DNA of 64,000 nucleotides from a virus (Duplodnaviria > Heunggongvirae > Uroviricota > Caudoviricetes): the IMG/VR virus record IMGVR_UViG_3300016667_000484, positions 1 to 64,000 of that record; one strand, written 5' to 3'. The translations under genes and the position numbers were made by a program. The notes below the pieces were generated by a model. It saw nothing but the letters and a program-made list of their open reading frames with translations. It was not told the DNA's origin and did no database searches. This document shows, piece after piece, positions 3,476-47,534 of the stretch (position 1 is its first letter; the number at the start of each line of letters is the position of its first letter).

Positions 3476-3777
3476 CAGCGGGCTCCTTTACAAGGCTTTC
3501 GTAGAGTTCCCCACCCACCCGTGACATCGTCTGTTGCGCCACAATCGTCACAGATGAAGTCAAACGTTGATGCATCAGAGGATCGTACAGCTTTGTGACT
3601 TTCATGGATTTTGTCCGGCCATTCTTCTTTTGGTTTAGCTGCATCTCGGTACTCCTTGATTTCTCTCGCCATTGAGAGGATCATATCAGACATGCTGCTG
3701 CGAATAGTATTGCCTCTAAAGCCATCTTCGAGGCAATACTGAAGAAGATCGTCACTGATTTTCATATCAGTCCCCAC
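3475..3777 (-). CDS. hypothetical protein with C-terminal CxxC pair
   Basis: 100-aa ORF whose stop and start are coupled to neighbours. It is preferred over the overlapping 3435-3644 frame. Confidence 0.45.
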   Translation of the reverse strand: MGTDMKISDDLLQYCLEDGFRGNTIRSSMSDMILSMAREIKEYRDAAKPKEEWPDKIHESHKAVRSSDASTFDFICDDCGATDDVTGGWGTLRKPCKGAR

Positions 3778-4912
3778 CCTTCAGCAGGAACTGATTGCTG
3801 ATCGTCTTGAAGCTAAAGCTCGGGTCTTTGTTGCACTTCCAGACGAGACCTTCGCGGATCTTGTGATTGATGCTCGGACCTTCTGCAAGAGCAAGACCTT
3901 CTTCAACACTGTTTGGTGCTTTCCAATCAGTGCCGAGAATTGGTACATGATCAAATCCCCAAGAATTACATGCTACTCTGCGATCAAGGCTATTGATGTA
4001 CGTATGGCGGTCAATGTCGAAAACATCGAACACGAAGAACTTATGCTCAGAAAAACCTTCACGGTTACCTTGAATACCTGGACCCATTAGTTCGCCTTGG
4101 AAAGCAAAGCCATCAGGAATACGCTCGCCGATCTTGAGAGCCATAGCAACGAAGGTGTTGTCTTTGTTCTCTTCGTTGATCTTCATTTCAAGGTTTCGAC
4201 TGCACACACGAAGTTCATCTTCCCAGCGGAAGATCGTGCAGCTCGAGCCATCGAGCTTCATGGTGACTTCGTAAGTCGGCTCCTTGAAGTCTTCCGGTAC
4301 GACGACCGGATGCTCTTCAAGAGTCTGAGTCTCAGCGTTCCAGACCTTCTCAGTAGCAAACCGCTTGGCCCGCTTTTGGATCTCACCAAAGCAGTTCTGA
4401 ATCCGCTCCTGATCGGTCTTGGGAATGAGCGAAGTTGGGAACATTCCAGCAGCTTGGCCCTGAAGCTGAGCAGGAATAGGAGCTTCCCACTTTTGAATGC
4501 CGAGAATAGCAGTAACGTCAAGACCAATTACTTCATCGTCGGTCCAGTCTGACTGCCAATCCCAAGTATTTGCTTCTGGGAATTTATGGAAGTCGACGTG
4601 CTTTGTCCACACAGTATGGATCGGCAGCAAAAGCCCCTGTGAAACCTGTCCGCGAAGCTTGATCGTCCGCAGACGTTCACCCTTTACACCATTGTACTCA
4701 CGAGGCTCTTGTCCCTTCGATAGGAACGGAGCGAGTTCATGAGGAACCCACGAGTCAATTTCAATGTAGAGCGCAAGATCAGCGACCTTGAACTCGCCTT
4801 TCTTGACGACGACTTTCCAACCATCGATGGTAGCAACCACGATAGCGTCAGCACCTTCGATCGGTTGAATGTCGGCGATACGCCGAATGCTAGCAAGTTT
4901 ACGTTCAGTCAT
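3767..4912 (-). CDS. ATP-dependent RNA ligase family protein (second ligase, Rnl-like)
   Basis: 381 aa with nucleotidyltransferase motif I KLDGSS (TMKLDGSSCTIF). It is not the DNA ligase, which lies at 8807. Confidence 0.65.
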   Translation of the reverse strand: MTERKLASIRRIADIQPIEGADAIVVATIDGWKVVVKKGEFKVADLALYIEIDSWVPHELAPFLSKGQEPREYNGVKGERLRTIKLRGQVSQGLLLPIHTVWTKHVDFHKFPEANTWDWQSDWTDDEVIGLDVTAILGIQKWEAPIPAQLQGQAAGMFPTSLIPKTDQERIQNCFGEIQKRAKRFATEKVWNAETQTLEEHPVVVPEDFKEPTYEVTMKLDGSSCTIFRWEDELRVCSRNLEMKINEENKDNTFVAMALKIGERIPDGFAFQGELMGPGIQGNREGFSEHKFFVFDVFDIDRHTYINSLDRRVACNSWGFDHVPILGTDWKAPNSVEEGLALAEGPSINHKIREGLVWKCNKDPSFSFKTISNQFLLKGGD

Positions 4913-5399: not shown

Positions 5400-6410
5400 T
5401 TACACCACAATCGTGCGAATGTCAATATCTTTTTCTGCGATGTAGTAAATAACCGCATCGTCAGGCACCACGTCGTCGCCACGAAGAATCATCGTCGGCT
5501 TCTCCTTCGAACCGTAACCGATCAGAGTCGCGTTCTGACGCAGCATGCTTTCGGCGAGATGTTTCACGTACCAGATGTTGTGTTTGTTGGTGTTGTTCAA
5601 CATGACCGATCGAAGAGAAGCGGGATCATCGGTCGAGACGAGGTTGCTGATCACATGAGAAGCGCCGGGATCATCGAGCGATCGTGCCAGTTGAGCGACA
5701 GAGTTGTCAGTGACTGCCTCAACGTTCTTGCAGTTCGCTTCGAGGATGTCAGCTGTCACTTGAGAGTCGAAGTATGCAACCACATGTCGATCTTTGTCGA
5801 CGAGAGAAGTCACTGCGAGTGCGGCAAGCAATGTCTCTTGATCATCCTTACCCATCACCACGATACGTTTAGCACCCTTGATCCCAGCACGGACAAGATC
5901 ATCTACACTCGCCAGTGACTCTGTTCGAACGATATGTACACCTTGGTCACTCGGACGACAATCACTTGAGGTTACCACAATCACTTCAGACTTGTCGATC
6001 TCTCGAATGAGTTTGTCGGTCTGCTTTGGATTACAACCCACGATGAGTGTATGGTTCTTAGTTTTGTGGAAGTCGCCGTAACCAGATTTGATCTTTTGGA
6101 TTTCGTTTGTCATAGTTGCGATAGCTTTCGTGACGAGTGCTGCGAATATCGAGACTGCGATGGGGATGAGGAACAGTGTTGCGAATAGTTGTCCATACTC
6201 AGACGAAGGGCTCATGTCACCGTAGCCGATCGTCGACGCAGTCACAGTGTAGTAATACACATAACTGATGAATGATGCCGTCAGATCTGCTTCACCAAGA
6301 TAGGCAAACCCAAAGTAAGTAAGGACAACGTGAAGAAGCGCAAGACCGAAGATCGTACGAAACCGAACGGTCTTAATCTTACGCGACAATAGCTTCAGGA
6401 TCAGGTACAT
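5400..6410 (-). CDS. potassium channel (GYGD selectivity filter) with C-terminal RCK/TrkA-like domain
   Basis: TVASTIGYGDMSP filter, two transmembrane helices plus a pore helix, and IVGCNPKQTDKLIREI Rossmann-like RCK. The start is ambiguous: ATG at 6410 (MYLILK) avoids overlapping the upstream gene, while the ORF track starts at a GTG at 6476. Confidence 0.75.
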   Translation of the reverse strand: MYLILKLLSRKIKTVRFRTIFGLALLHVVLTYFGFAYLGEADLTASFISYVYYYTVTASTIGYGDMSPSSEYGQLFATLFLIPIAVSIFAALVTKAIATMTNEIQKIKSGYGDFHKTKNHTLIVGCNPKQTDKLIREIDKSEVIVVTSSDCRPSDQGVHIVRTESLASVDDLVRAGIKGAKRIVVMGKDDQETLLAALAVTSLVDKDRHVVAYFDSQVTADILEANCKNVEAVTDNSVAQLARSLDDPGASHVISNLVSTDDPASLRSVMLNNTNKHNIWYVKHLAESMLRQNATLIGYGSKEKPTMILRGDDVVPDDAVIYYIAEKDIDIRTIVV

Positions 6411-6639: not shown

Positions 6640-6851
6640 TAGTATACTCCTAGTAGAAGTGCTTCAACTTCTGGGTGGGCGACCATAGGCTTCATGACCT
6701 TGACAGGTTTGTAGACGTGCTCGATCTTGTTGCAAGAAGTGATCATGATTGCAATCTCCGGACCAAGTACACACTTGATCCCAGGTGTGTACTTGACCGA
6801 GTCTGCTGTTTCAATATCTACCGTATAAGGCGTCATCATGCGCGCATCCAC
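6639..6851 (-). CDS. hypothetical protein
   Basis: 70-aa ORF with coupled stop and start. Confidence 0.4.
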   Translation of the reverse strand: MDARMMTPYTVDIETADSVKYTPGIKCVLGPEIAIMITSCNKIEHVYKPVKVMKPMVAHPEVEALLLGVY

Positions 6852-7960
6852 TCCATCAGTGCTTCGTACTTCGGCGTCGAGCCAATGTTCTTCTTGCAGT
6901 AGTCGAGCAGCAGGTCCCGCAGAACCGCACCGTCGATCAGCCGGAAGATGAAACCACCGTCGGCCTTGTTGATCAGGTTCGGCACCATCTCGAGCGCGAT
7001 GCGCTTCTTGTCAGCACCATAGATCGTCCGAGCCAGCATCTCGAGACCTTCAAGCCGACCTTCAGCGTTGCGGAAAGCTTCCCAGAAAGCAGCCTCAACA
7101 TTGTCGACGCGAACCAAGTCCGAAGGATCGAGCATAGCCCGAGTGTCGTCGATAGTCTCGTTCAGGACGAGCTCAACGATGTTACGATCAACGGCAACGA
7201 TGTCCTTGGTCTTGTGGATCTGCACGTACCAGTCATTTTTGCACTTAACCATCATACCATCATCGAAGCGGATAATGTCCCCTTCTCGATTAGTTTCTCC
7301 TCGCGAAAATGCAAGGTAAGCATCAAGATCATGAATGCTGGCATAAGTTGCAACAACCTCAAACGGGGTAAAAATCTCTCGTAGATCTACATATACCCCA
7401 GATACGGTCTCACGAACACCAGTCAGGATCAGCTTCGGCTCGACGTATTCAACCACGATCTTGTTGGTAGGAGCAATATACTCGAAGATCGGAGTGAAGC
7501 CATCAGCCATCATGTCGTCGAGCCAGTTGTACTGATCAACGTCAAGAAGCTTCTCAGCTTCCATCGCGATGTCGGTCACACCCATCTTGGTAGCAAGACG
7601 AACCATTCCATGCATACGCACAGGACGTATCATCGAACCATCGAGTTTGTCCATCACGACGTGATCACGAGTCAGGTCCAAACGATGCGACTGAGTTTCT
7701 TCCTTCTCGTTCACATTGAAGAACTTGTGATACGGGCGGGACATGATGTCGCCTTCGGGATAGAAGATCATACCACGACATTCGCGACGAATGGCACCCA
7801 TCACATCGTCAGGACCTTCCATCTTGAAGGTGTCGGGCATGGCGACGAGATAGTTGATCACGGTACCGAAGTCACGCTCAGCAACAACGAACTCGTCACG
7901 ACCAGCGATTGCCGGAAGAACGTCAGCGATCGTACGAATTTCAGGGAACTTGTAGTGCAT
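6836..7960 (-). CDS. rnlA: RNA ligase 1 (T4 RnlA-like)
   Basis: 374 aa, the same length as T4 Rnl1. Motif I is VVMDKLDGSMI. Early promoter at 7985-8013. Confidence 0.75.
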   Translation of the reverse strand: MHYKFPEIRTIADVLPAIAGRDEFVVAERDFGTVINYLVAMPDTFKMEGPDDVMGAIRRECRGMIFYPEGDIMSRPYHKFFNVNEKEETQSHRLDLTRDHVVMDKLDGSMIRPVRMHGMVRLATKMGVTDIAMEAEKLLDVDQYNWLDDMMADGFTPIFEYIAPTNKIVVEYVEPKLILTGVRETVSGVYVDLREIFTPFEVVATYASIHDLDAYLAFSRGETNREGDIIRFDDGMMVKCKNDWYVQIHKTKDIVAVDRNIVELVLNETIDDTRAMLDPSDLVRVDNVEAAFWEAFRNAEGRLEGLEMLARTIYGADKKRIALEMVPNLINKADGGFIFRLIDGAVLRDLLLDYCKKNIGSTPKYEALMEWMRA

Positions 7961-8806: not shown

Positions 8807-9931
8807 TCAATCCTCCCTCTTACCTTTGCCCCAGTCGATCACAACGGGGAACCGCGGAACCCCATCAGGAGTGGGCGTGAAGTAGCGCAGAGTGACCCAG
8901 TCAGGCTTCTCTTGTTTGGCCCACATCGCCTGCAGAGTTTCCATATCACCGCGAACACCGGCTTGAAAAGTCTTCTCCGAATTCAGACGCAGGACGAAGT
9001 GCTTCACACACCCATGCCAATTGCCTTGACCTTCGAGAACTTCGACCACTTCGAACTCGTCGGTCAAGAACTCTTTGCGCTTGAGCAGGTTCTTCGTACG
9101 CTTGTTCTCGTACGGTTTGTCGATACGAACCATTTGGCCTTCATAGCCATGCTCGAGGTAACCTTCGTACAGCGAGTCAAGCCCCGTGTGCGTAGGCACA
9201 TGTACAGTGGGTACGATCCGCACGTATTGAAGCGGCGCAGCATAACGAAGAAGCTCACGCTTGCTGAAGGGAAGATCGGGTTCATCAGTGACGATCACAT
9301 CGTACACATGGTATTGCACAAGTTCTTTCGACTTCACCAGATCTTCTGGTTTCGGCTTCGTCTTGCGAACCATCGAAGTGATGGAGTTGAAGTCGTCTTT
9401 GAGCTCATGATTGTAGAGCTCACCGTCGAGAATCATGTTCGGATGCTCTTCAAAGAAAGGCTGCAGGGACTCCCAGATATGAGGCACAGCAACGATCTCT
9501 TTGCCAGACCGAGTCCACAACCCGTCTTTACGAGCGATGCATCGGATGCCATCCAGCTTCGGCTGAGCGTACACATTACCGGCAGCGAAGTTCACTTCGA
9601 CGTCTTCGAACTTCTCGGCCAGCATAGGCTTGAACTTGTCGAAGGTGTCGACGTTCTTCAGGTCGGTGAAGTACCCACGGTCTTTCTTCTTCTGCACTTC
9701 AGAGGCCATCTCCGATGTGGCTTGCTCTTCAAGAGAAGTCTCATTCGAACGACCGACGTTCTTCTGTTCAACGAAGGTCCATTCCGAAGTCACCTTCTTC
9801 CCGTCTTCAAGGCCGGCGATCGAACGAAGACCCCAACGAGTCCCGTCGGTTCCAGTCTCAGCATACCACACTCGCACCTTGCCTTTGGAATCGAGTTTGT
9901 AGAGGGTTTCGCTAGTCAGTACAGTTTTCAT
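8807..9931 (-). CDS. ATP-dependent DNA ligase
   Basis: AQPKLDGIRC motif I and the DGELY motif. 374 aa. RBS GGAG. Confidence 0.85.
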   Translation of the reverse strand: MKTVLTSETLYKLDSKGKVRVWYAETGTDGTRWGLRSIAGLEDGKKVTSEWTFVEQKNVGRSNETSLEEQATSEMASEVQKKKDRGYFTDLKNVDTFDKFKPMLAEKFEDVEVNFAAGNVYAQPKLDGIRCIARKDGLWTRSGKEIVAVPHIWESLQPFFEEHPNMILDGELYNHELKDDFNSITSMVRKTKPKPEDLVKSKELVQYHVYDVIVTDEPDLPFSKRELLRYAAPLQYVRIVPTVHVPTHTGLDSLYEGYLEHGYEGQMVRIDKPYENKRTKNLLKRKEFLTDEFEVVEVLEGQGNWHGCVKHFVLRLNSEKTFQAGVRGDMETLQAMWAKQEKPDWVTLRYFTPTPDGVPRFPVVIDWGKGKRED

Positions 9932-14631: not shown

Positions 14632-16047
14632 TTACACACCTTCCTTTGCACGTTCACGAATGGTTGCAAAGTCGTCTTCAACAAGGATAGCACCGTTGCG
14701 GAATACCGGACGAAGCATGTTCTTGACCGACAAGAACTCCCAGACATAGTCTTCAGGCACCGTGGAGATGTGTCCACCTTCATTTACCAGAGCCAGACGA
14801 CCCTGCTTCGACTTCTTACCGTGGTCTGTGATCGGGTCTTTTGCGAACCCCTTCCAAAGACCGTCAGCACCTTTGATCGCCGAAGCTTTCATCGCGTACT
14901 TCAAGGTGTCGCGGTTCCAAGCCTGCAGCAGACCACCACCCATACCAAAGGCGATGTTGTCGACAGAGATACCTTCGAGGATCAGGTTGCCGAGGATGAT
15001 CGGCAGCGACTTCTCGTTGATGCCGTCGCCCTGAATAACTCGGATGTGCGGAGGCAGGACCTTGAAGCCCTTGCTGTTGATGCTGTATCCGAACTTGTCC
15101 ATCAGGATCTTGATGACTTCGATCGGAACAACGGTAGGATCACCTGAGTCGGGACGTACCACCAAGGTGCCACCCGACAGAATGATCTTGTCTTTCAGGG
15201 CAGTGCCCCAAAGATCAGAACATGCTTTGTAGATGTCGAAGCTGTCAGACACACAGGCATAGAGTTTACCTGGGCCAGCAAACTTGTCGATCATATTCTC
15301 GAATGCGTTGACTTCGTTCTCGCGGCCCCAAGAGGTGATCGTCGAGTGTTCAGACGCAGGGATCGAGAAGCCAACCACTTCATCGGTGTTGTAGTATTCC
15401 ATAACACCGACAAGTGCTTCAGCAGTGTCAGTGCCCCAGAAGTTCACGAGGTGAGCCATGCCGCCAAGAACTGCAGTCTCACTCGAGGAAGCACCACGAG
15501 CACCGAAGTCATGCAACTTGAAGTTGATCTGAGCTTCGACAGGAACGTCGGAAGTCTTCTCGAGAGCGGCTTTGATGAACTTCTTCATCTTGCGGCTCTT
15601 GGTCGCGACAGTCGAAGGGTACCAGACGCCACGCAGAAGTGCAGTCTCGAGGTACGAAGTCAGCCACCACAGACGAGGATCGGTGTTAACCACCTGCACC
15701 TGTACGTTGTGAGTAGGCATAACCGTACCTTCAGGAACAGCCTCGATCTCAACAGGAAGCATACCGTTGTATTCGTTGACGATGATTTCCCAACCTTCGC
15801 GGTTGAAAGGCAGACCATGTGCGGTCACGATCTTCTCAGCACGATCGACATCCTTCATCGTGATAGGCGTCGTCATGTAATCTTTCATGAAAGCCTGAAG
15901 ACCGAAGAAGACCGATTCATCTTCACCACCACGCGACTCGATGTACGAAGACACGTGAGTCGTGCCAGCAGGGTATTGTACCCACTGAGAGAATTTGTAG
16001 CTGTCAGTGCGGATGATTGCAGAGATTAGATTTAGTACAGTTTTCAT
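14632..16047 (-). CDS. nadV: nicotinamide phosphoribosyltransferase (NAMPT)
   Basis: 471 aa with the typical NAMPT/PBEF sequence (RTDSYKFSQW ...). Confidence 0.9.
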   Translation of the reverse strand: MKTVLNLISAIIRTDSYKFSQWVQYPAGTTHVSSYIESRGGEDESVFFGLQAFMKDYMTTPITMKDVDRAEKIVTAHGLPFNREGWEIIVNEYNGMLPVEIEAVPEGTVMPTHNVQVQVVNTDPRLWWLTSYLETALLRGVWYPSTVATKSRKMKKFIKAALEKTSDVPVEAQINFKLHDFGARGASSSETAVLGGMAHLVNFWGTDTAEALVGVMEYYNTDEVVGFSIPASEHSTITSWGRENEVNAFENMIDKFAGPGKLYACVSDSFDIYKACSDLWGTALKDKIILSGGTLVVRPDSGDPTVVPIEVIKILMDKFGYSINSKGFKVLPPHIRVIQGDGINEKSLPIILGNLILEGISVDNIAFGMGGGLLQAWNRDTLKYAMKASAIKGADGLWKGFAKDPITDHGKKSKQGRLALVNEGGHISTVPEDYVWEFLSVKNMLRPVFRNGAILVEDDFATIRERAKEGV

Positions 16048-38606: not shown

Positions 38607-38682
38607 TGGTTGCCCCGGCGGGAATCGAACCCGCAACCGAGTGGTTTAGAAGCACCTGCTCCACCAATTGAGCTACGGGGCC
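38607..38682 (-). tRNA. tRNA with anticodon CTA (amber-suppressor-like)
   Basis: Acceptor, D-arm (GCUC/GAGC) and T-arm (GCGGG UUCGAUU CCCGC) are good. The anticodon loop UUCUAAA is fixed by the flanking arms. G1.A72 and C31.C39 are mismatched. Confidence 0.55.
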
Positions 38683-39251
38683 AAGCTGGTTCTCACACTT
38701 TGAACCGAATGTCGTCTAGAACTGAGTGACCCGCCTTTCGGCTACTATACATAGGTATCTAGATCGAACAATAGTAAGGTGACAGGATTTATCCTCGATT
38801 CCTCCGACACTGAGATGACTGGATGGTCGTCGTCCTTGTCGAGGCATTACCTGTCTCTATGATCATGGTTTTTACACCAAGATTTGTTGCAGTACCCATC
38901 CGAAACTGGTAAGCGGCGGTTCTATTGCGAAAGTCAGTTGCAGGAACTTACCAAGAAAGATTACGCCGAACAGTAGTTGAAGTTAACAGAATGTTTGCCT
39001 ACTCTCTATTTTATGTGGGAGAATCGAAAGCCACGTGCGTTTACCAATTAAACAGTATGTTTTGATTGATTGCTGTACACATTCTAAATTCTGGTGTCGG
39101 CTTCAGGTTATCACATTAACTTAGCCCAATCTTCACGCGAAGGGTACCGACATATTGGTGGACCTGCACGGTTACGATCCGTGTCCTCTACATTGCAAGT
39201 GTAGAATGCTCCCATTATCACCACAGGCCCGTGTTGAGGTTACCCTGACCA

Positions 39252-39328: not shown

Positions 39329-39445
39329 TGAAAAGCCACTCCACCACCTGCTTTTACGAAAACAGGAAAATTCGTCAGGATCGTTTTTGTCCGCTAAGAC
39401 ATGCATTGATTTAGCGTTTTGGTTTGCTGAACCGATCCTATATTT

Positions 39446-44063: not shown

Positions 44064-44140
44064 TGGTTGCGGTGGGCAGGAATCGAACCTGCGTAATCGG
44101 CTTATGAGACCGTGCTGGAACCACCTCCAGTCTACCCCGC
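44064..44140 (-). tRNA. tRNA with anticodon CAT (Met or Ile2); acceptor pairing imperfect
   Basis: D-arm CUGG/CCAG, anticodon loop CUCAUAA, T-arm GCAGG UUCGAUU CCUGC. The acceptor has 2 mismatches. The shared motif ATTTTTGCGGGGTA lies at its 5' end. Confidence 0.5.
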
Positions 44141-44264
44141 AAAAATCGCCCGGTTTGTTTCTTCGTCCTCATGCGGTCTATTCGGCCCGCGAGCAACTAC
44201 CTACCAGCCGGAACTGGCGATTCTGTTTTGAGCGATACACCACCTCCAAGGTAACAACCGAGCC

Positions 44265-44375
44265 ACTAGTGGCGCAGGAGGGAATCGAACCCTACTTGAT
44301 GTATCCGTCAAAACAGAATTTCTGCGATTCTGTTTTCAGCTACATCAAGTGGACTACCACAAGCAATTACGCCAC
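44265..44375 (-). pseudogene. tRNA-like element interrupted by a long AU-rich hairpin
   Basis: T-arm-like AGGGUUCGAUUCCCU and a 3' CCA, but the body contains the nested hairpin CUUGAUGUA[GCUGAAAACAGAAU-CGCAGAA-AUUCUGUUUUGACGGA]UACAUCAAG. Confidence 0.4.
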
Positions 44376-44430
44376 CCAATGTTTCCCCACCAGGTTTTGA
44401 TGTATGTGAAAACAGAATTTCTTCTGTTTC
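44295..44430. repeat. recurring AAACAGAA-loop-TTCTGTTT hairpins
   Basis: aaaacagaatttctgcgattctgtttt at 44301-44329 and gaaaacagaatttcttctgtttc at 44408-44430. Related copies at 54807-54820, 54898-54922, 40901-40910 and 40985-40995. Confidence 0.5.
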
Positions 44431-44526
44431 TAAGTTTTCAAAGAACGTTGAGGTTTACCACCTCATGTATCCTATTTATACCATCTACTGAGCAATGTCA
44501 ACAACTTTTTTCGTCAGGATCGCTTT

Positions 44527-44590
44527 TTTGCCGCGGATTTGAACCGCACACTTTTCTTGGAAGGAAAATGCTCTACCGTTGAGCTATGCA
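44527..44590 (-). pseudogene. tRNA-like pseudogene (intact D-arm, anticodon arm with UCC, T-arm; acceptor stem disrupted)
   Basis: GCUC AACGGUA GAGC / UUUUC CUUCCAA GAAAA / UGCGG UUCAAAU CCGCG. No pairing acceptor and no CCA. Flanked by the repeated motif atgcaatttt(t/g)ttgctg. Confidence 0.4.
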
Positions 44591-44617
44591 ATTTTTTGCT
44601 GAAACGATCCTATAATC

Positions 44618-44995
44618 TTATAGGCTCTTGCCCGCGATGTCTTTCATCGCCATGTCGATCTTGTACACACGCTTCAGAGGAAGAATAGCACAACGAGTGG
44701 TGTCAGTGTACTGCCGAGTCTTGTAGTTGTACGACTTAGAAGGAACACCATCAACACGAACAGCTTTGACGTACTGCTTCATCTCGTGCTTAACGTTACC
44801 CTTTTCGTCTCGAATGTATTGACCATTCTCGTCTTTCAGATAGTGACGACCAATCGAGTAGTAAACGCCAGCGAACTTGCCAGTCCGGACTCGAACACTG
44901 TGACCGTAGCCGGTGCCAACATAGACGACTTCATCACCCGGTTGAATGGTCTGCCCGAGTTCGTTAGTAAATGCTTCTGCGACCAGATCGGCCAT
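44618..44995 (-). CDS. hypothetical protein
   Basis: 125-aa ORF. Confidence 0.5.
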   Translation of the reverse strand: MADLVAEAFTNELGQTIQPGDEVVYVGTGYGHSVRVRTGKFAGVYYSIGRHYLKDENGQYIRDEKGNVKHEMKQYVKAVRVDGVPSKSYNYKTRQYTDTTRCAILPLKRVYKIDMAMKDIAGKSL

Positions 44996-45301
44996 GTGAT
45001 TCTCCGTTGTTCATGATGTATATTCAGGTTGGTTGGTTACTTGTTTGTTGCCTTACCATTTGGCTATCTACGCAAGAAGCGTGGAATCGGATTCGAACCG
45101 ATAATACACAAAGTGTGTAAGTTTGCTGAACCCAACCTATATTCTTTCTGGATCAACTTTTTTGCTACGTGTGCATCTGTTACACCAATGCCCCATAGTG
45201 AAATTGGTGGGGCACCTAGGATTTGCACCTAGACCACGATCTCCGAATGATATGCAATTTTGTTGCTGTAATGATCCAATATTCGTTAGGCTATGCCGCC
45301 G

Positions 45302-46744
45302 TTAGACGGCATAGCGATCCTTAAGCAGAGTCTTCAGCATTACGTTGTAAGGCGTGAACTCTTCGAGGTCGTTCGCAAGGACCGACTTCATGATGGCAGG
45401 CGAGAAGCCCGAGACCAAGCAGACACCCTTGTCGTCGAAACGAACCGGAGTGTTGCTGTCGCCGTAAGGAGACAGGTTCCAGAAGACGATCTTCGGCACA
45501 GCGTAGCCGGCCTTAGCGTACTTCCGAGCAATCATCTCCTGAGCGGAGTCATCGTAGCGAACGCAGGAGTTGAACTGCATGTCCGAGAGGATCAGCAGCA
45601 TCTCCGGCATGTCCTCTTGCGAGACCTTGCCCTTGATTGCGATGTCGAGCAACATGTCGAACGCTGCATGCAGGTTCGTGCTACCCGCGACGATCTCAGG
45701 GATCGACTTCAGACGCTGAGTCAGCGAGCCCTTAGGCGTAACCAACTTCGGAGTCGAGTCGAAGATCATCATGAGGTCCTTGAAGTTGGACGTGTTCTTT
45801 TCAGAAACGTACAGACCCAGACCCAGTGCGACCTCGATAGGCTGAGGAGCACCGTTACCACCACGGTTCATACCGTAACGGTTGAAAGGCATGTAGCCCA
45901 TCGAACCAGAGGTGTCGACGATCGGGAAGATCTTCGCGTTACCGACGAAGTTAGGCAGAGCCTTCCACTGCTCGTCAGCAACAGCCGAGTTACCATTCGT
46001 CACCGAACGGATAACGTCGTACGGATAGACCGCACCAGCGTTGATCTTGACCTTCACGGTACGCTCAGCCTCAGGCTTCTGCAGCTCACGAATGTAAGCC
46101 GAGTAAGCTTCCTTAGCGTTGCGGCCGAAAGCCTTCTGATAGCGAGCCGATGCAACCGAAGGAACATGCGAGAAGTTAATCTCGTTCCAGTTCTTGGCAC
46201 ACATCTGGGTCTCGACGACCGAGGTCAGTTCGACAACCAGCTTACGATAAGACTTTGGCGACAGGCCGAGGAACTTGGTCAGTTCGACTGCGACTGGACC
46301 CTTACGAGGCATCCACTTCGCGCAGAGGCCGTTCTTGTCTTCGATGAGAGCCTTGCGGATCATCTCGAAAGCAGCCTTGCGGTTGAAGTGCTCGGTGTAG
46401 GCGAACAGGTCGTCCCAACGGCCAAGCTCAGGAATGCGAGCCATCAGCTTACCAGCGGTAGCAGGGTTCAACGTTTCCAGCTTCGACAGAAGGTTGCGGA
46501 ATTGAGCACGCTCACCGGCACCTTCGCGAATGTCGCGAGTCCACAGAAGAGCACGCAGTGCGTGCTCTTCGTTTTCGGCCAGAGCCGAGAGGAATTGATC
46601 GGTCATATCCTTACCACGGTAAGAACCGACCTTGCCGAAGAAGTCCAAGACTGCCGATGCCGAAGTAGCACGGGCCTTCATACCATTCGCGGTACGAGCA
46701 GGAGCTTCATTCTTGTAGTTGAGGGCTGCGTTTGCAAAAGACAT
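45302..46744 (-). CDS. vWA-domain protein (DUF2828 / Ro60-TROVE-like architecture)
   Basis: MIDAS motif IVDTSGSMGYMP in the C-terminal half and a long alpha-rich N-terminal half. 480 aa. tRNA-like motifs lie in its 5' leader. Confidence 0.7.
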   Translation of the reverse strand: MSFANAALNYKNEAPARTANGMKARATSASAVLDFFGKVGSYRGKDMTDQFLSALAENEEHALRALLWTRDIREGAGERAQFRNLLSKLETLNPATAGKLMARIPELGRWDDLFAYTEHFNRKAAFEMIRKALIEDKNGLCAKWMPRKGPVAVELTKFLGLSPKSYRKLVVELTSVVETQMCAKNWNEINFSHVPSVASARYQKAFGRNAKEAYSAYIRELQKPEAERTVKVKINAGAVYPYDVIRSVTNGNSAVADEQWKALPNFVGNAKIFPIVDTSGSMGYMPFNRYGMNRGGNGAPQPIEVALGLGLYVSEKNTSNFKDLMMIFDSTPKLVTPKGSLTQRLKSIPEIVAGSTNLHAAFDMLLDIAIKGKVSQEDMPEMLLILSDMQFNSCVRYDDSAQEMIARKYAKAGYAVPKIVFWNLSPYGDSNTPVRFDDKGVCLVSGFSPAIMKSVLANDLEEFTPYNVMLKTLLKDRYAV

Positions 46745-46852
46745 AGTGTATTCCTTTCTGGTTGGATTTACGGATTCGAACCGCTAAGTTTGTTTACAAG
46801 ACAAATTGGGAACCATTCCCGGTTTTTTGTTGCTGAAACCAACCGTTTAGTT

Positions 46853-47329
46853 TCAAGATTTAGATCTACCTTTACGAAAATTTTCTGGAATTGGATCAGT
46901 AGATCTTATTGATTTGGTGATCACACCATCAGTTATCCAGATTCTGCCCGATGATGCTTTATTGCCGATAGTACCTTTAGCAAATGTATTGCCTCTATTG
47001 CCTATCATGTGGCTATTTCCAATCAGATAGGAATAATCGATATTCTTACTGGCGTCTCCACCGTTTACGGCATTCTCCTCTATCAGATTTGCCCATTCAC
47101 TTGAATTGACTATATCATTGTTTTTAGAGAATGTCAAGGCAAAGTCTTTAGCCTCTTCAGTATTTTGATACTCTGCGATAACAACTGTATCTATGTCGTA
47201 CCCATGAACTTTAAGGTGTGCTTTCCAATACTTACCGCTTCCACGATATTTGTATGGATCACGAACAGTCTTGCCAAAATACTTCAGCTTTGTGACGCGA
47301 TGCGTCTTTACGTACAGATAAATAGTCAT
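46853..47329 (-). CDS. GIY-YIG homing endonuclease
   Basis: MTIYLYVKTHRVTKLKYFGKT...YKYRGSG is a paralogue of the 24145 gene. RBS gggag. TATAAATA at 47394-47401. Confidence 0.65.
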   Translation of the reverse strand: MTIYLYVKTHRVTKLKYFGKTVRDPYKYRGSGKYWKAHLKVHGYDIDTVVIAEYQNTEEAKDFALTFSKNNDIVNSSEWANLIEENAVNGGDASKNIDYSYLIGNSHMIGNRGNTFAKGTIGNKASSGRIWITDGVITKSIRSTDPIPENFRKGRSKS

Positions 47330-47393
47330 ATGCTGGAAACTCCCGTATGTTTCTAGAGCTAGCAGACATTGGCGTGTCGTGGCTAGCACTTTC

Positions 47394-47401: not shown

Positions 47402-47534
47402 CGAAAGTTTCATCTGGATGACGTTTGTCAGCTACTACAAATTATCAGTTTGTTGCTTGAGTTATTTGCGGAAGTCATCCAATTTTCTTCATAGTCTCAA
47501 TCTATACTAAGTTTGTATAGATGTCAACCACTTT

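Follow-up and report, generated by a model that had tools for sequence, protein, structure and literature searches.

A probable phage ribonucleoprotein module of the Ro60-Y RNA type, comprising a DUF2828 protein and a family of RNAs with tRNA-mimicking heads

Particles of Ro60 and Y RNA have been described in animals, in some bacteria and in a few phages. A stretch of 64,000 nucleotides from a Caudoviricetes phage (IMG/VR record IMGVR_UViG_3300016667_000484, positions 1 to 64,000; the whole stretch is referred to here as the window) was found to carry a gene for a 480-residue protein with a Ro60-like fold, together with seven copies, E0 to E6, of a structured, strand-specific and covarying RNA family with tRNA-mimicking heads. 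We regard the locus as, on balance, a probable phage ribonucleoprotein module of the Ro60-Y RNA type, assembled from divergent parts. A preliminary description of the window had proposed a Ro-Y-RNA-like module, a reading now supported by the fold of the protein, the covarying RNAs and their linkage to the gene, although the relationship between RNA and protein is computational throughout. The RNA family is previously undescribed, is paired with a divergent (DUF2828) protein family and is classed here with the Ro60-Y RNA systems; searches of the literature on DUF2828, on the "Ro-like RNA binding protein" and on tRNA-like decoys turned up no account of such RNAs.

The locus lies in the middle of a tRNA gene array that extends from 36 to 56 kb of the window. 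ARAGORN places 42 genes in it, every one on the minus strand, and HNH and GIY-YIG endonuclease genes are interspersed among them. A megablast search of the locus against 50,697 phage records gave no match, the window phage, a large tailed phage, having no close sequenced relative.

The Ro60-like protein

The gene (45302..46744, minus strand) encodes a helical-repeat N-terminal part followed by a vWA domain with a MIDAS (metal ion-dependent adhesion site). The 480-residue open reading frame (ORF) with a DTSGS MIDAS and a helical N-terminal half had been recognized at the outset, and the translation, 41 homologues and a structural model all agree with that assignment. The motif is of the DxSxS type (D277-T-S279-G-S281), and D277, S279 and S281 are invariant in the 41 homologues. 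An AlphaFold2 model built with these homologues (66-97% identity) has an all-helical N-terminal part (helices at residues 31-262) and then an alpha/beta vWA domain, the order of a helical HEAT-like repeat region and a vWA domain that defines the Ro60/TROVE fold. When the model was compared with the PDB using Foldseek, the first seven matches were Ro60/Rsr chains (E values 5.6e-7 to 6.8e-5) aligned over 514-573 columns, approximately the full length, and every later match covered the vWA domain only.

Of the two families named for an initial profile search, DUF2828 was found (73.7 bits, cut-off 29, E 1.7e-20) and TROVE was not. DUF7788 was matched at residues 275-459 (131.2 bits, cut-off 27.1, E 4.4e-38), so that two Pfam models passed their curated cut-offs; the generic VWA_2 model matched weakly. 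PHROG 850, labelled "RNA-binding protein", matched end to end (E 2e-130). Membership of TROVE by sequence was rejected after searches of Pfam, of PDB sequences and profiles, and of NCBIfam, the last of which returned nothing for the 480-residue protein. Given that Foldseek ranks Ro60/Rsr first and that the MIDAS is invariant while the TROVE hidden Markov model is silent, the modelled protein is taken to be structurally related to Ro60 yet outside TROVE by sequence.

The protein family was detected by tblastn in 710 of the 50,697 phage records, always at <60% identity. Members occur in KVP40-like vibriophages, Felixounaviruses, Campylobacter phages, Listeria A511-type phages, phages of Staphylococcus, Enterococcus and Bacillus, and also mycobacteriophages, in which the homologue bears the SEA-PHAGES label "Ro-like RNA binding protein". 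An ORF of 539 codons on the plus strand (45293-46912) spans the entire Ro-like gene; its status as a gene is unsupported, and it is probably a by-product of the codon bias (GC-rich third positions) of the real gene.

Seven RNA elements in the window

A scan combining a regular expression with a stem search, together with a covariance model (R1), identified seven elements in the window, all on the gene strand, i.e. the minus strand. Common to them are a closing helix of 7 bp that covaries, a (U/A)CAGCAA segment that is invariant on the 5' side and a 3' strand rich in A, and this frame carries one of several heads: a mimic of an anticodon arm, a tRNA-like module with D, anticodon and T arms, or a permuted module running from T arm to D arm. 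R1 was run over the entire 64 kb on both strands with filters off. Its seven best matches were the seven minus-strand sites, five of them at E values of 6e-7 to 0.065, with E0 (E 0.067) and a partial match to E2 (E 0.44) marginal. E5 was the best match in the window but was present in the training alignment. The plus strand of the 64-kb window gave no R1 match with E<1. The closing helix appears in the RNAfold structure of every element but E6, in which it is seen in the centroid only. Fold z-scores of the single sequences ranged from -0.45 to -3.5, too weak alone for thermodynamic stability to serve as evidence.

E1 (46760..46844) is the leader RNA element of the Ro60-like gene, with the helix GGUUGG/CCAACC and the segment UUCAGCAA (R1 26.3 bits, E 0.0013). 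The leader (46745-46850, minus strand) reads GGUUGGUUUCAGCAACAAAAAACC-GGGAAUGGUUCCC-A-AUUUGU CUUGUAA ACAAA-CUUA-GCGGUUCGAAUCCGU-AAAUCCAACC; the anticodon-arm-like and T-arm-like hairpins previously remarked on in it are present and are closed by the GGUUGG/CCAACC helix, and the head as a whole is tRNA-like, with D-like, anticodon-like (loop CUUGUAA) and T-like arms. Further upstream, E0 (47415..47481) is a short form with the variant segment UUCCGCAA, the helix UGGAUGAC/GUCAUCCA and an anticodon-arm-like head with the loop CUGAUAA (R1 18.8 bits). Its orthologue in the related locus L214 (2827-2887) scores 55.8 bits and directly adjoins the orthologue of E1.

Downstream of the gene, E2 (45149..45278) is a long form with the helix UGGAUCA/UGAUCCA and the segment UACAGCAA; its head consists of a T-arm-like hairpin, a V-stem and a D-arm-like hairpin, the permuted order of YrlA RNA. 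The neighbouring long form E3 (45027..45137) has the helix GGUUGG/CCAACC, the segment UUCAGCAA and a head of T arm (AUCGGUUCGAAUCCGAU), V-stem and D arm (R1 18.8 bits, E 0.065; z -2.45). E4 (44516..44611) is a tRNA-like form with the helix AGGAUCG/CGAUCCU and the segment UUCAGCAA (R1 35.3 bits, E 1.1e-5; z -3.5); its head has D, anticodon (loop CUUCCAA) and T arms and an acceptor-like stem of just 4 bp. There are two further copies. The short form E5 (39377..39439), a simple hairpin closed by AGGAUCG...CGAUCCU, lies 8 nt downstream of a tRNA-Pro gene of the array (R1 40.6 bits as a training copy; z -2.5), and E6 (38988..39085) combines the helix AGAAUGU/ACAUUCU and the segment UACAGCAA with a head of the UUUCGAUU-loop subclass (R1 25.6 bits, E 0.0018).

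These results revise the preliminary description in several respects. The three "pseudo-tRNA" regions that it had listed begin with GG(A/U)U-NNN-U(U/A)CAGCAA on the minus strand and end with the complement of their own first six or seven bases. The region at 44527-44590 stands as tRNA-like, the core of E4 (44527-44591) matching the Rfam tRNA model at 40.2 bits, but 45085-45250 is not one element, the real units being 45027-45137 and 45149-45278. The sequence motif said to be shared by three sites is present as written at 44585 and 45255; at 46822 just the core uugcuga(a/u)a is found, which corresponds to (U/A)UCAGCAA on the minus strand. Additional copies lie at 45123-45137, 39424-39438 and 39077-39085, with a variant at 47466-47481, and the copy number rises from three to seven. 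Likeness to tRNA also gives way as the defining feature to the closing helix and CAGCAA segment, the tRNA-like part being a swappable head. ARAGORN called none of E0-E6 as tRNA, and the tRNA cloverleaf, with its acceptor stem of 7 bp and its discriminator/CCA end, is lacking in all seven. In an Rfam scan of the window elements, no family was matched besides tRNA (E4) and YrlA (E3).

Covariation and anticodon-loop mimicry in the RNA family

Eighty loci with homologues of 47-69% identity were taken from IMG/VR, and the motif was found on the gene strand in nearly all of them. The complement of the instance's own 7-mer (at most one mismatch, 30-230 nt downstream) was present for 102 of 113 non-redundant motif instances, compared with ~37 of 113 when the 7-mers were swapped. 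In an alignment of 96 diverse short forms (A3), all four Watson-Crick types occurred at the inner pairs of the closing helix and columns 11-16 (CAGCAA) were invariant. The unbiased evidence for the family consists of the 7-mer swap control and the apical helix, which was never a selection criterion and was aligned by itself. The apical helix was 84% paired, one of its pairs occurring as CG 20, UA 17, GC 14 and AU 13 times. Its covariation score was 0.48, as against 0.15 in shuffles, none of 500 shuffles reaching 0.48, and fell to 0.10 or less once the 3' partners were slid by one column. Single mispairs in the closing helix were more often G.U (85) than A.C (32), a bias that points to RNA pairing on the sense strand.

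Three other readings of the conserved parts were rejected. An eighth closing pair was unpaired in 70 of 92 scored rows, four more rows being gapped. CAGC as the loop of a mini-hairpin was unsupported, with 61% of cells paired and the outer pairs mostly unpaired. With regard to a promoter, the -11 A position varies, no -35 is conserved, elements occur 12 nt apart, the variable bases covary with the 3' partner, and promoter-like sites are no commoner than in shuffles.

The YU-NNN-RA signature of anticodon loops was present in 68 of 178 apical 7-nt loops, where shuffling of the interior leads to an expectation of 1.6. All but two of these (66/68) are exactly C-U-NNN-A-A, and the commonest "anticodons" are UUU (20), UGU (9), CAU (5) and GUA (5). 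In longer forms D and T arms are added around the anticodon-like hairpin, and in other long forms the T arm precedes the D arm. R1 places the anticodon arms of E4 and E1 on the apical hairpin, with the D and T arms as insertions. Rfam scans of the distant loci returned no family that covers the elements.

Two annotated "tRNAs" of Cronobacter phage S13 (L203), at 4357-4477 (121 nt) and 4487-4599 (113 nt), have ~45-nt insertions in the anticodon region. The insertion holds GCAAACUGA(C/U)AAGUUUGUAUUCAGCA, a CAGCA-containing hairpin, and the two genes may represent either tRNAs that contain introns or hybrids between tRNAs and the present elements.

Linkage of the RNAs to the DUF2828 gene

Across 473 kb from 65 distinct loci, 107 strict motifs were counted, every one of them on the gene strand and none within the gene itself. 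Motif density was highest close to the gene: the first 250 nt upstream held 0.77 copies per locus and the 250 nt beyond them 0.32, the first 250 nt downstream held 0.24, and the rest of the sequence within 3.5 kb held 0-0.07. A search of 145 kb of additional loci with R1 gave 30 matches at E<=0.1, all 30 on the gene strand. When the viral collection was scanned with the motif alone, 120 loci were obtained, of which ~35 contain the gene, often with the motif less than ~500 nt upstream on the same strand. All 31 loci examined with well-formed copies and no gene in the fragment were tRNA arrays, in which the elements fill tRNA-sized gaps on the tRNA strand. A reverse scan with the Firmicutes-type 14-mer CTAACAGCAATTAC gave matches mostly due to chance; about eight look genuine, one of them with DUF2828 in the fragment.

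In annotated phages from unrelated families and with unrelated hosts, copies beside the gene were found as three in tandem upstream of gp57 in Listeria A511, two upstream in Campylobacter CP30A, three upstream in Enterococcus ZJGS3, three downstream in Staphylococcus 6ec, three downstream in mycobacteriophage Chaser, seven in Bacillus BcoS-136, five in Ralstonia RSP15 and at least three in a Felixounavirus. The opposite strand of these annotated phages gave 0-1 matches per locus, compared with 0.3-0.9 in shuffles, mostly long spurious pairs. The pairing of RNA and DUF2828 gene thus recurs in phages of Proteobacteria, Firmicutes, Actinobacteria and Campylobacter. What the lineages have in common is CAGCAA and the general plan alone, the helix sequences being wholly different.

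In Chaser, a 13-tRNA array lies 23 kb from the Ro-like gene. R1 was run over the complete genome (76.7 kb, both strands, filters off) and matched only in the gap after the gene. The two copies matched were in the training set, and the informative result is therefore that nothing was found elsewhere. The independent regex-plus-stem detector again placed three copies beside the gene and found the tRNA array free of them; its only other matches were two low-quality pairs inside coding regions. The genetic linkage accordingly spans four bacterial phyla and is independent of the tRNA array.

In KVP40 (L001), two copies of A(A/C)GACAUU(G/U)UACAGCAA were noted at 592-615 and 3962-3985, one right after tRNA-Ser and the other 20 nt before the DUF2828 start codon. 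Neither has a convincing 3' partner, and they may represent a helix-less docking segment.

Comparison with YrlA RNAs

The comparison with YrlA that had been suggested at the outset was borne out in part. E3 matched the Rfam YrlA model weakly (23.4 bits, E 0.09, at 45039-45116, model positions 17-92). The orthologue of E2 in locus L005 (4957-5057) matched YrlA (RF02553) end to end in a 45-kb search at 41.4 bits (E 6.8e-6), below the gathering score of 69. The agreement in that alignment comes from the T arm, V stem and D arm, and the basal GNCGAA-bearing stem is mismatched. Because the arms align to YrlA while the basal stem fails, the head is YrlA-like and the docking module different. The defining YrlA order, a T arm 5' of a D arm enclosed by a stem formed from the paired ends, is present in E2 and E3, and the same permuted head was found in the L219, L221, L003 and L005 orthologues, as well as in long forms from Chaser, from Enterococcus, Bacillus and Felixounavirus phages and from Bas63. 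The GNCGAAN0-1G segment of YrlA, the proposed Rsr-binding site (PMC4201824), is absent and (U/A)CAGCAA stands in its place. YrlA RNAs also adjoin a Ro60 orthologue, as the elements do in the window and at least nine phage lineages, with the qualification that the protein is here a structural relative and not a member by the TROVE model.

The two systems therefore share a protein with helical repeats and a vWA/MIDAS domain whose best structural matches are Ro60, small RNAs that adjoin its gene with several per locus, 5' and 3' ends that pair in a stem bearing a short conserved purine-rich 5' segment, and in some heads a T arm placed before the D arm, one orthologue being found by the YrlA model itself. 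They differ in that here there is no TROVE match and (U/A)CAGCAA replaces GNCGAA/CGAA, the heads are modular (anticodon arm only, standard-order tRNA-like, permuted or none), and the copy number is high, with copies dispersed through tRNA arrays. A PNPase partner is a feature of Ro60-YrlA with no known counterpart here. Compared with the tRNAs and tRNA-like RNAs of phage arrays, the elements are co-located, co-oriented and of tRNA-like size, some with D, anticodon and T arms, but they have a closing helix and CAGCAA in place of a 7-bp acceptor stem or CCA end. The T4 tRNA cluster is known to encode the stable RNAs C and D.

Earlier surveys were differently framed. Chen et al. (2014) confined their search to genomes in which TROVE proteins were annotated, and took the GNCGAA segment as the definition of YrlA (PMC4201824). 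In Thermus phage phiLo, two CGAA-type Y-like RNAs (Yrl1/Yrl2) adjoin a TROVE Ro60 (PMC12135203), and Iyer et al. (2021) noted that TROVE proteins of a few jumbo phages have a tRNA-like partner (PMC7824862).

The leader element in relatives

The leader was compared among relatives of 66-97% protein identity. The upstream element in these relatives keeps the helix GGUU(G/U)G...C(A/C)AACC and, following it, (A/U)GAAAGGAAUACACU-AUG, and the Shine-Dalgarno sequence therefore starts ~4 nt past the helix. Both the helix and its distance from the Shine-Dalgarno sequence are constant across the relatives, and the head is exchanged freely: some have tRNA-like heads with the loops CUUGUAA, CUUAGAA or CUUAUAA, others entirely different arms or an anticodon arm only, and the L216 leader element is almost headless, at 33 nt in total. 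This arrangement suggests that a helix-bound protein would occlude the ribosome-binding site.

Unannotated elements in phage Bas63

A PhageMaP preprint reports that gp130 of the Felixounavirus Bas63 has a Ro60-like structure and suggests a Y RNA partner (PMC11482910). Deletion of g130 leads to poorer growth of Bas63 on hosts with the Ppl defence, and the authors' guess was that some annotated tRNAs are Y RNAs (PMC11482910). The gp130 protein is 41% identical to the window protein over its full length (E 3e-112) and shares with it the protein family and a position at the head of a tRNA array. Four unannotated CAGCAA-helix elements were found in gaps between the tRNAs just downstream of the gp130 gene; in contrast to the annotated tRNAs proposed by the preprint's authors, these are distinct elements. 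Their approximate positions in MZ501086 are 82072-82138, 82239-82296, 82694-82761 and 82781-82906. Three were detected by R1 at E values of 5.9e-6, 4.3e-5 and 0.0079, with no Felixounavirus sequence in the training set, and the fourth has a T-arm-to-D-arm head. The anti-Ppl phenotype belongs to Bas63 gp130, and none is on record for the window phage.

The annotated gene bas63_0137 (positions 6249-6401 of L346, the locus taken from MZ501086; minus strand) runs antisense over two CAGCAA-helix elements (6195-6262 and 6282-6407), and this "hypothetical protein" is probably a mis-annotation. A second tiny "hypothetical protein", bas63_0138 (L346, 6413-6523, minus strand), lies just 3' of those elements in the same tRNA gap.

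Neighbouring genes and other features

A GIY-YIG-type homing-endonuclease-like gene (46853..47389, minus strand; PHROG 314 "homing endonuclease", E 1.6e-4) separates E0 from E1. It is missing from close relatives, the E0 and E1 orthologues being adjacent in L214 and L215, and is an insertion outside the module. The pentamer GAAAC is present at both of its junctions (~47406-47410 and 46850-46854), and a strong sigma-70-like site lies within the insertion (47137-47109, 11/12 matches).

A 125-residue ORF (44618..44995, minus strand) is conserved between or just after the downstream RNAs in close relatives, with counterparts at 4624-5001 in L214, 4553-4930 in L216 and ~5120 onward in L003, and of 138 residues in L217 and L219. 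This ORF and a neighbouring 188-residue ORF had no Pfam or PHROG match. The 125-residue product may be a further component of the operon. In L217, L219 and L221 (71-77% identity) a PARP-domain protein of >1,200 residues is encoded 1-3 kb upstream of the Ro-like gene, and in L217 and L219 a nucleoside deoxyribosyltransferase-like gene lies between the two.

Downstream of E4 (44068-44500, minus strand), a promoter-like TTGACA...TATAAA was observed, uncalled by the promoter scanner because its spacer is 15 nt. It is followed by ~400 nt of structured sequence with two odd tRNA-like matches not called by ARAGORN, one at 44068-44140 (Rfam tRNA, 30.3 bits) and a tRNA-Sec-like one at 44270-44374 (22.9 bits; 3' end ...GGUUCGAUUCCCUCCUGCGCCA). 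The two matches might reflect tRNAs with an intron or a long arm, or a further tRNA mimic. Within the array, a tRNA with the anticodon CUA (38607-38682, minus strand; labelled tRNA-Pyl by ARAGORN) would be of the amber-suppressor type. CUA tRNAs occur likewise in the related loci L174 and L176 and might indicate stop-codon read-through or recoding in this phage group.

The window also encodes, on the minus strand, an Rnl2-like (3767-4912) and an Rnl1-like (6836-7960) RNA ligase, which matched PHROG 968 and PHROG 562 (the latter labelled "Rnl1/tail-fibre attachment"), as well as a DNA ligase and NAMPT (8807-9931 and 14632-16047); ribonucleotide reductase is encoded too. Chaser carries polynucleotide kinase, RNA ligase and NAD-salvage genes besides its Ro-like gene, and Bas63 carries polynucleotide kinase. 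Part or all of this RNA-repair and NAD-salvage set recurs in these DUF2828-positive phages.

Discussion

That the locus forms a module of the Ro60-Y RNA type has to be weighed against a number of contrary observations. With respect to the protein, the Pfam search gave no match to TROVE (PF05731) at E<=1, phmmer and profile searches of PDB sequences returned noise and not Ro60, the AlphaFold2 model is of moderate confidence (predicted local distance difference test score 75.6, predicted template modelling score 0.61), and the template modelling scores of the Foldseek matches are 0.34-0.45. With respect to the RNAs, the pairing percentage of the closing helix is inflated because that helix is part of the detection rule, no element reaches the YrlA gathering score, and many copies lie far from the gene, in tRNA arrays. 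No copy was found within 3 kb in two DUF2828 phages, Aeromonas PX29 and Erwinia pEa44, and only weak or partial versions were found in KVP40 and DLP6. Finally, gp130 alone, expressed from a plasmid or from T7, counters Ppl and rescues T7 on Ppl hosts (PMC11482910). Since gp130 is sufficient against Ppl, the RNAs are not essential to every activity of the protein, and their dispensability for this phenotype keeps alive two explanations in which they are not its cofactors.

According to one of these, the elements act only in cis, as operators or leaders for the translation or stability of their neighbours, and the protein works without an RNA cofactor. The rescue of T7 by gp130 and the position of the E1 helix, which ends ~4 nt before the Shine-Dalgarno sequence in all relatives, are consistent with such a role. 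Most copies, however, are upstream of no ORF, lying between tRNAs or in tandem downstream of the gene, and neither the permuted YrlA-like module nor anticodon-loop mimicry has an obvious use in a simple operator; we judge this explanation unlikely. We think it improbable, too, that the elements are general processing or punctuation signals of phage tRNA-mRNA polycistrons, recognized by a host or phage ribonuclease and found near DUF2828 merely because the gene lies in the tRNA region. Copies do fill tRNA-sized gaps in 31/31 arrays without a DUF2828 gene in the fragment, their flanks are AU-rich, and they precede several different ORFs. Against this, the Chaser elements adjoin the gene and are absent from the tRNA array, density drops 10- to 30-fold over the 500 nt nearest the gene even though the flanking sequence belongs to the array too, the same motif is found in hosts with different RNase sets (Firmicutes, Actinobacteria, Proteobacteria and Campylobacter), and a cleavage site needs no tRNA or anticodon-arm mimicry with a conserved loop signature.

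Two further explanations appear far less credible. Decay of tRNA genes through array rearrangement driven by homing endonucleases, the alternative set out in the preliminary description, would fit the interspersed HNH and GIY-YIG genes, one of which is inserted between E0 and E1, and the score of E4 as a tRNA (40 bits) without a proper acceptor stem. It is contradicted by compensatory changes in both helices, by the absolute strand bias, by the conservation across phyla of a non-tRNA motif and helix paired with the gene, and by heads that are swapped while the helix is kept, and is accordingly very improbable. We attach equally little weight to mobile repeats resembling miniature inverted-repeat transposable elements, or to DNA-level recombination sites. 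The elements are indeed multi-copy, dispersed, short and bounded by inverted repeats, yet their orientation follows transcription (107:0 and 30:0), G.U exceeds A.C among the mispairs (85 to 32), the internal hairpin covaries too, and the inverted-repeat sequence differs between lineages whereas the asymmetric CAGCAA segment is conserved.

Under the favoured interpretation as a Ro60-Y RNA-type module, the RNAs would be co-transcribed with the Ro60-like gene and the surrounding tRNAs. Release by tRNA-processing enzymes is probable because short forms occupy tRNA-sized gaps between tRNA genes. Each RNA would then present a constant docking module, consisting of the 7-bp end-formed helix, the unpaired 5' (U/A)CAGCAA and the A-rich 3' side, which would replace the GNCGAA stem of YrlA, and on it an interchangeable head that imitates the anticodon arm of a tRNA, the entire tRNA body or YrlA's permuted tRNA-like domain. 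In Ro60 the outer surface binds Y RNA and the central hole misfolded RNA; by analogy with the binding of Ro60 to the Y RNA stem, the Ro60-like protein may bind the closing helix together with the CAGCAA segment. Docking motif and protein family differ together (CAGCAA with DUF2828, GNCGAA with TROVE), as would fit a cognate pair. At the leader copy E1, the protein might repress its own translation, and the heads might bring the protein to, or divert, proteins that recognize tRNA, candidate targets being processing, repair or decay enzymes and host tRNA-cleaving defence nucleases.

A more speculative and rather doubtful extension, put forward because of the loop statistics and the RNA-repair gene context in the window, Chaser and Bas63, is that the RNAs are decoys mounted on the protein. 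They would mimic anticodon arms or whole tRNAs, most often tRNA-Lys(UUU) and then Thr(UGU), Met(CAU) and Tyr(GUA), and would sequester or misdirect the tRNA-cleaving defence nucleases of the host, or pass damaged tRNAs on to the ligase and kinase repair enzymes of the phage. If this were true, tRNA-rich phages would possess a widespread RNA-based anti-defence system, of which the anti-Ppl activity of gp130 would be one example or a side activity.

For phage annotation, the family flags unannotated small RNAs in many tRNA arrays, some of which in Bas63 overlap tiny antisense "hypothetical protein" calls. Bas63 is genetically tractable and has a measurable phenotype, and the RNA elements are concrete candidate cofactors of its gp130. 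The locus and its relatives would constitute a second, much larger phage branch of Ro60-Y RNA with its own docking motif and set of tRNA-mimicking heads, a branch that would include such workhorse phages as the Felix O1 relatives, the Listeria A511/P100-type phages, Campylobacter phages and cluster L mycobacteriophages.

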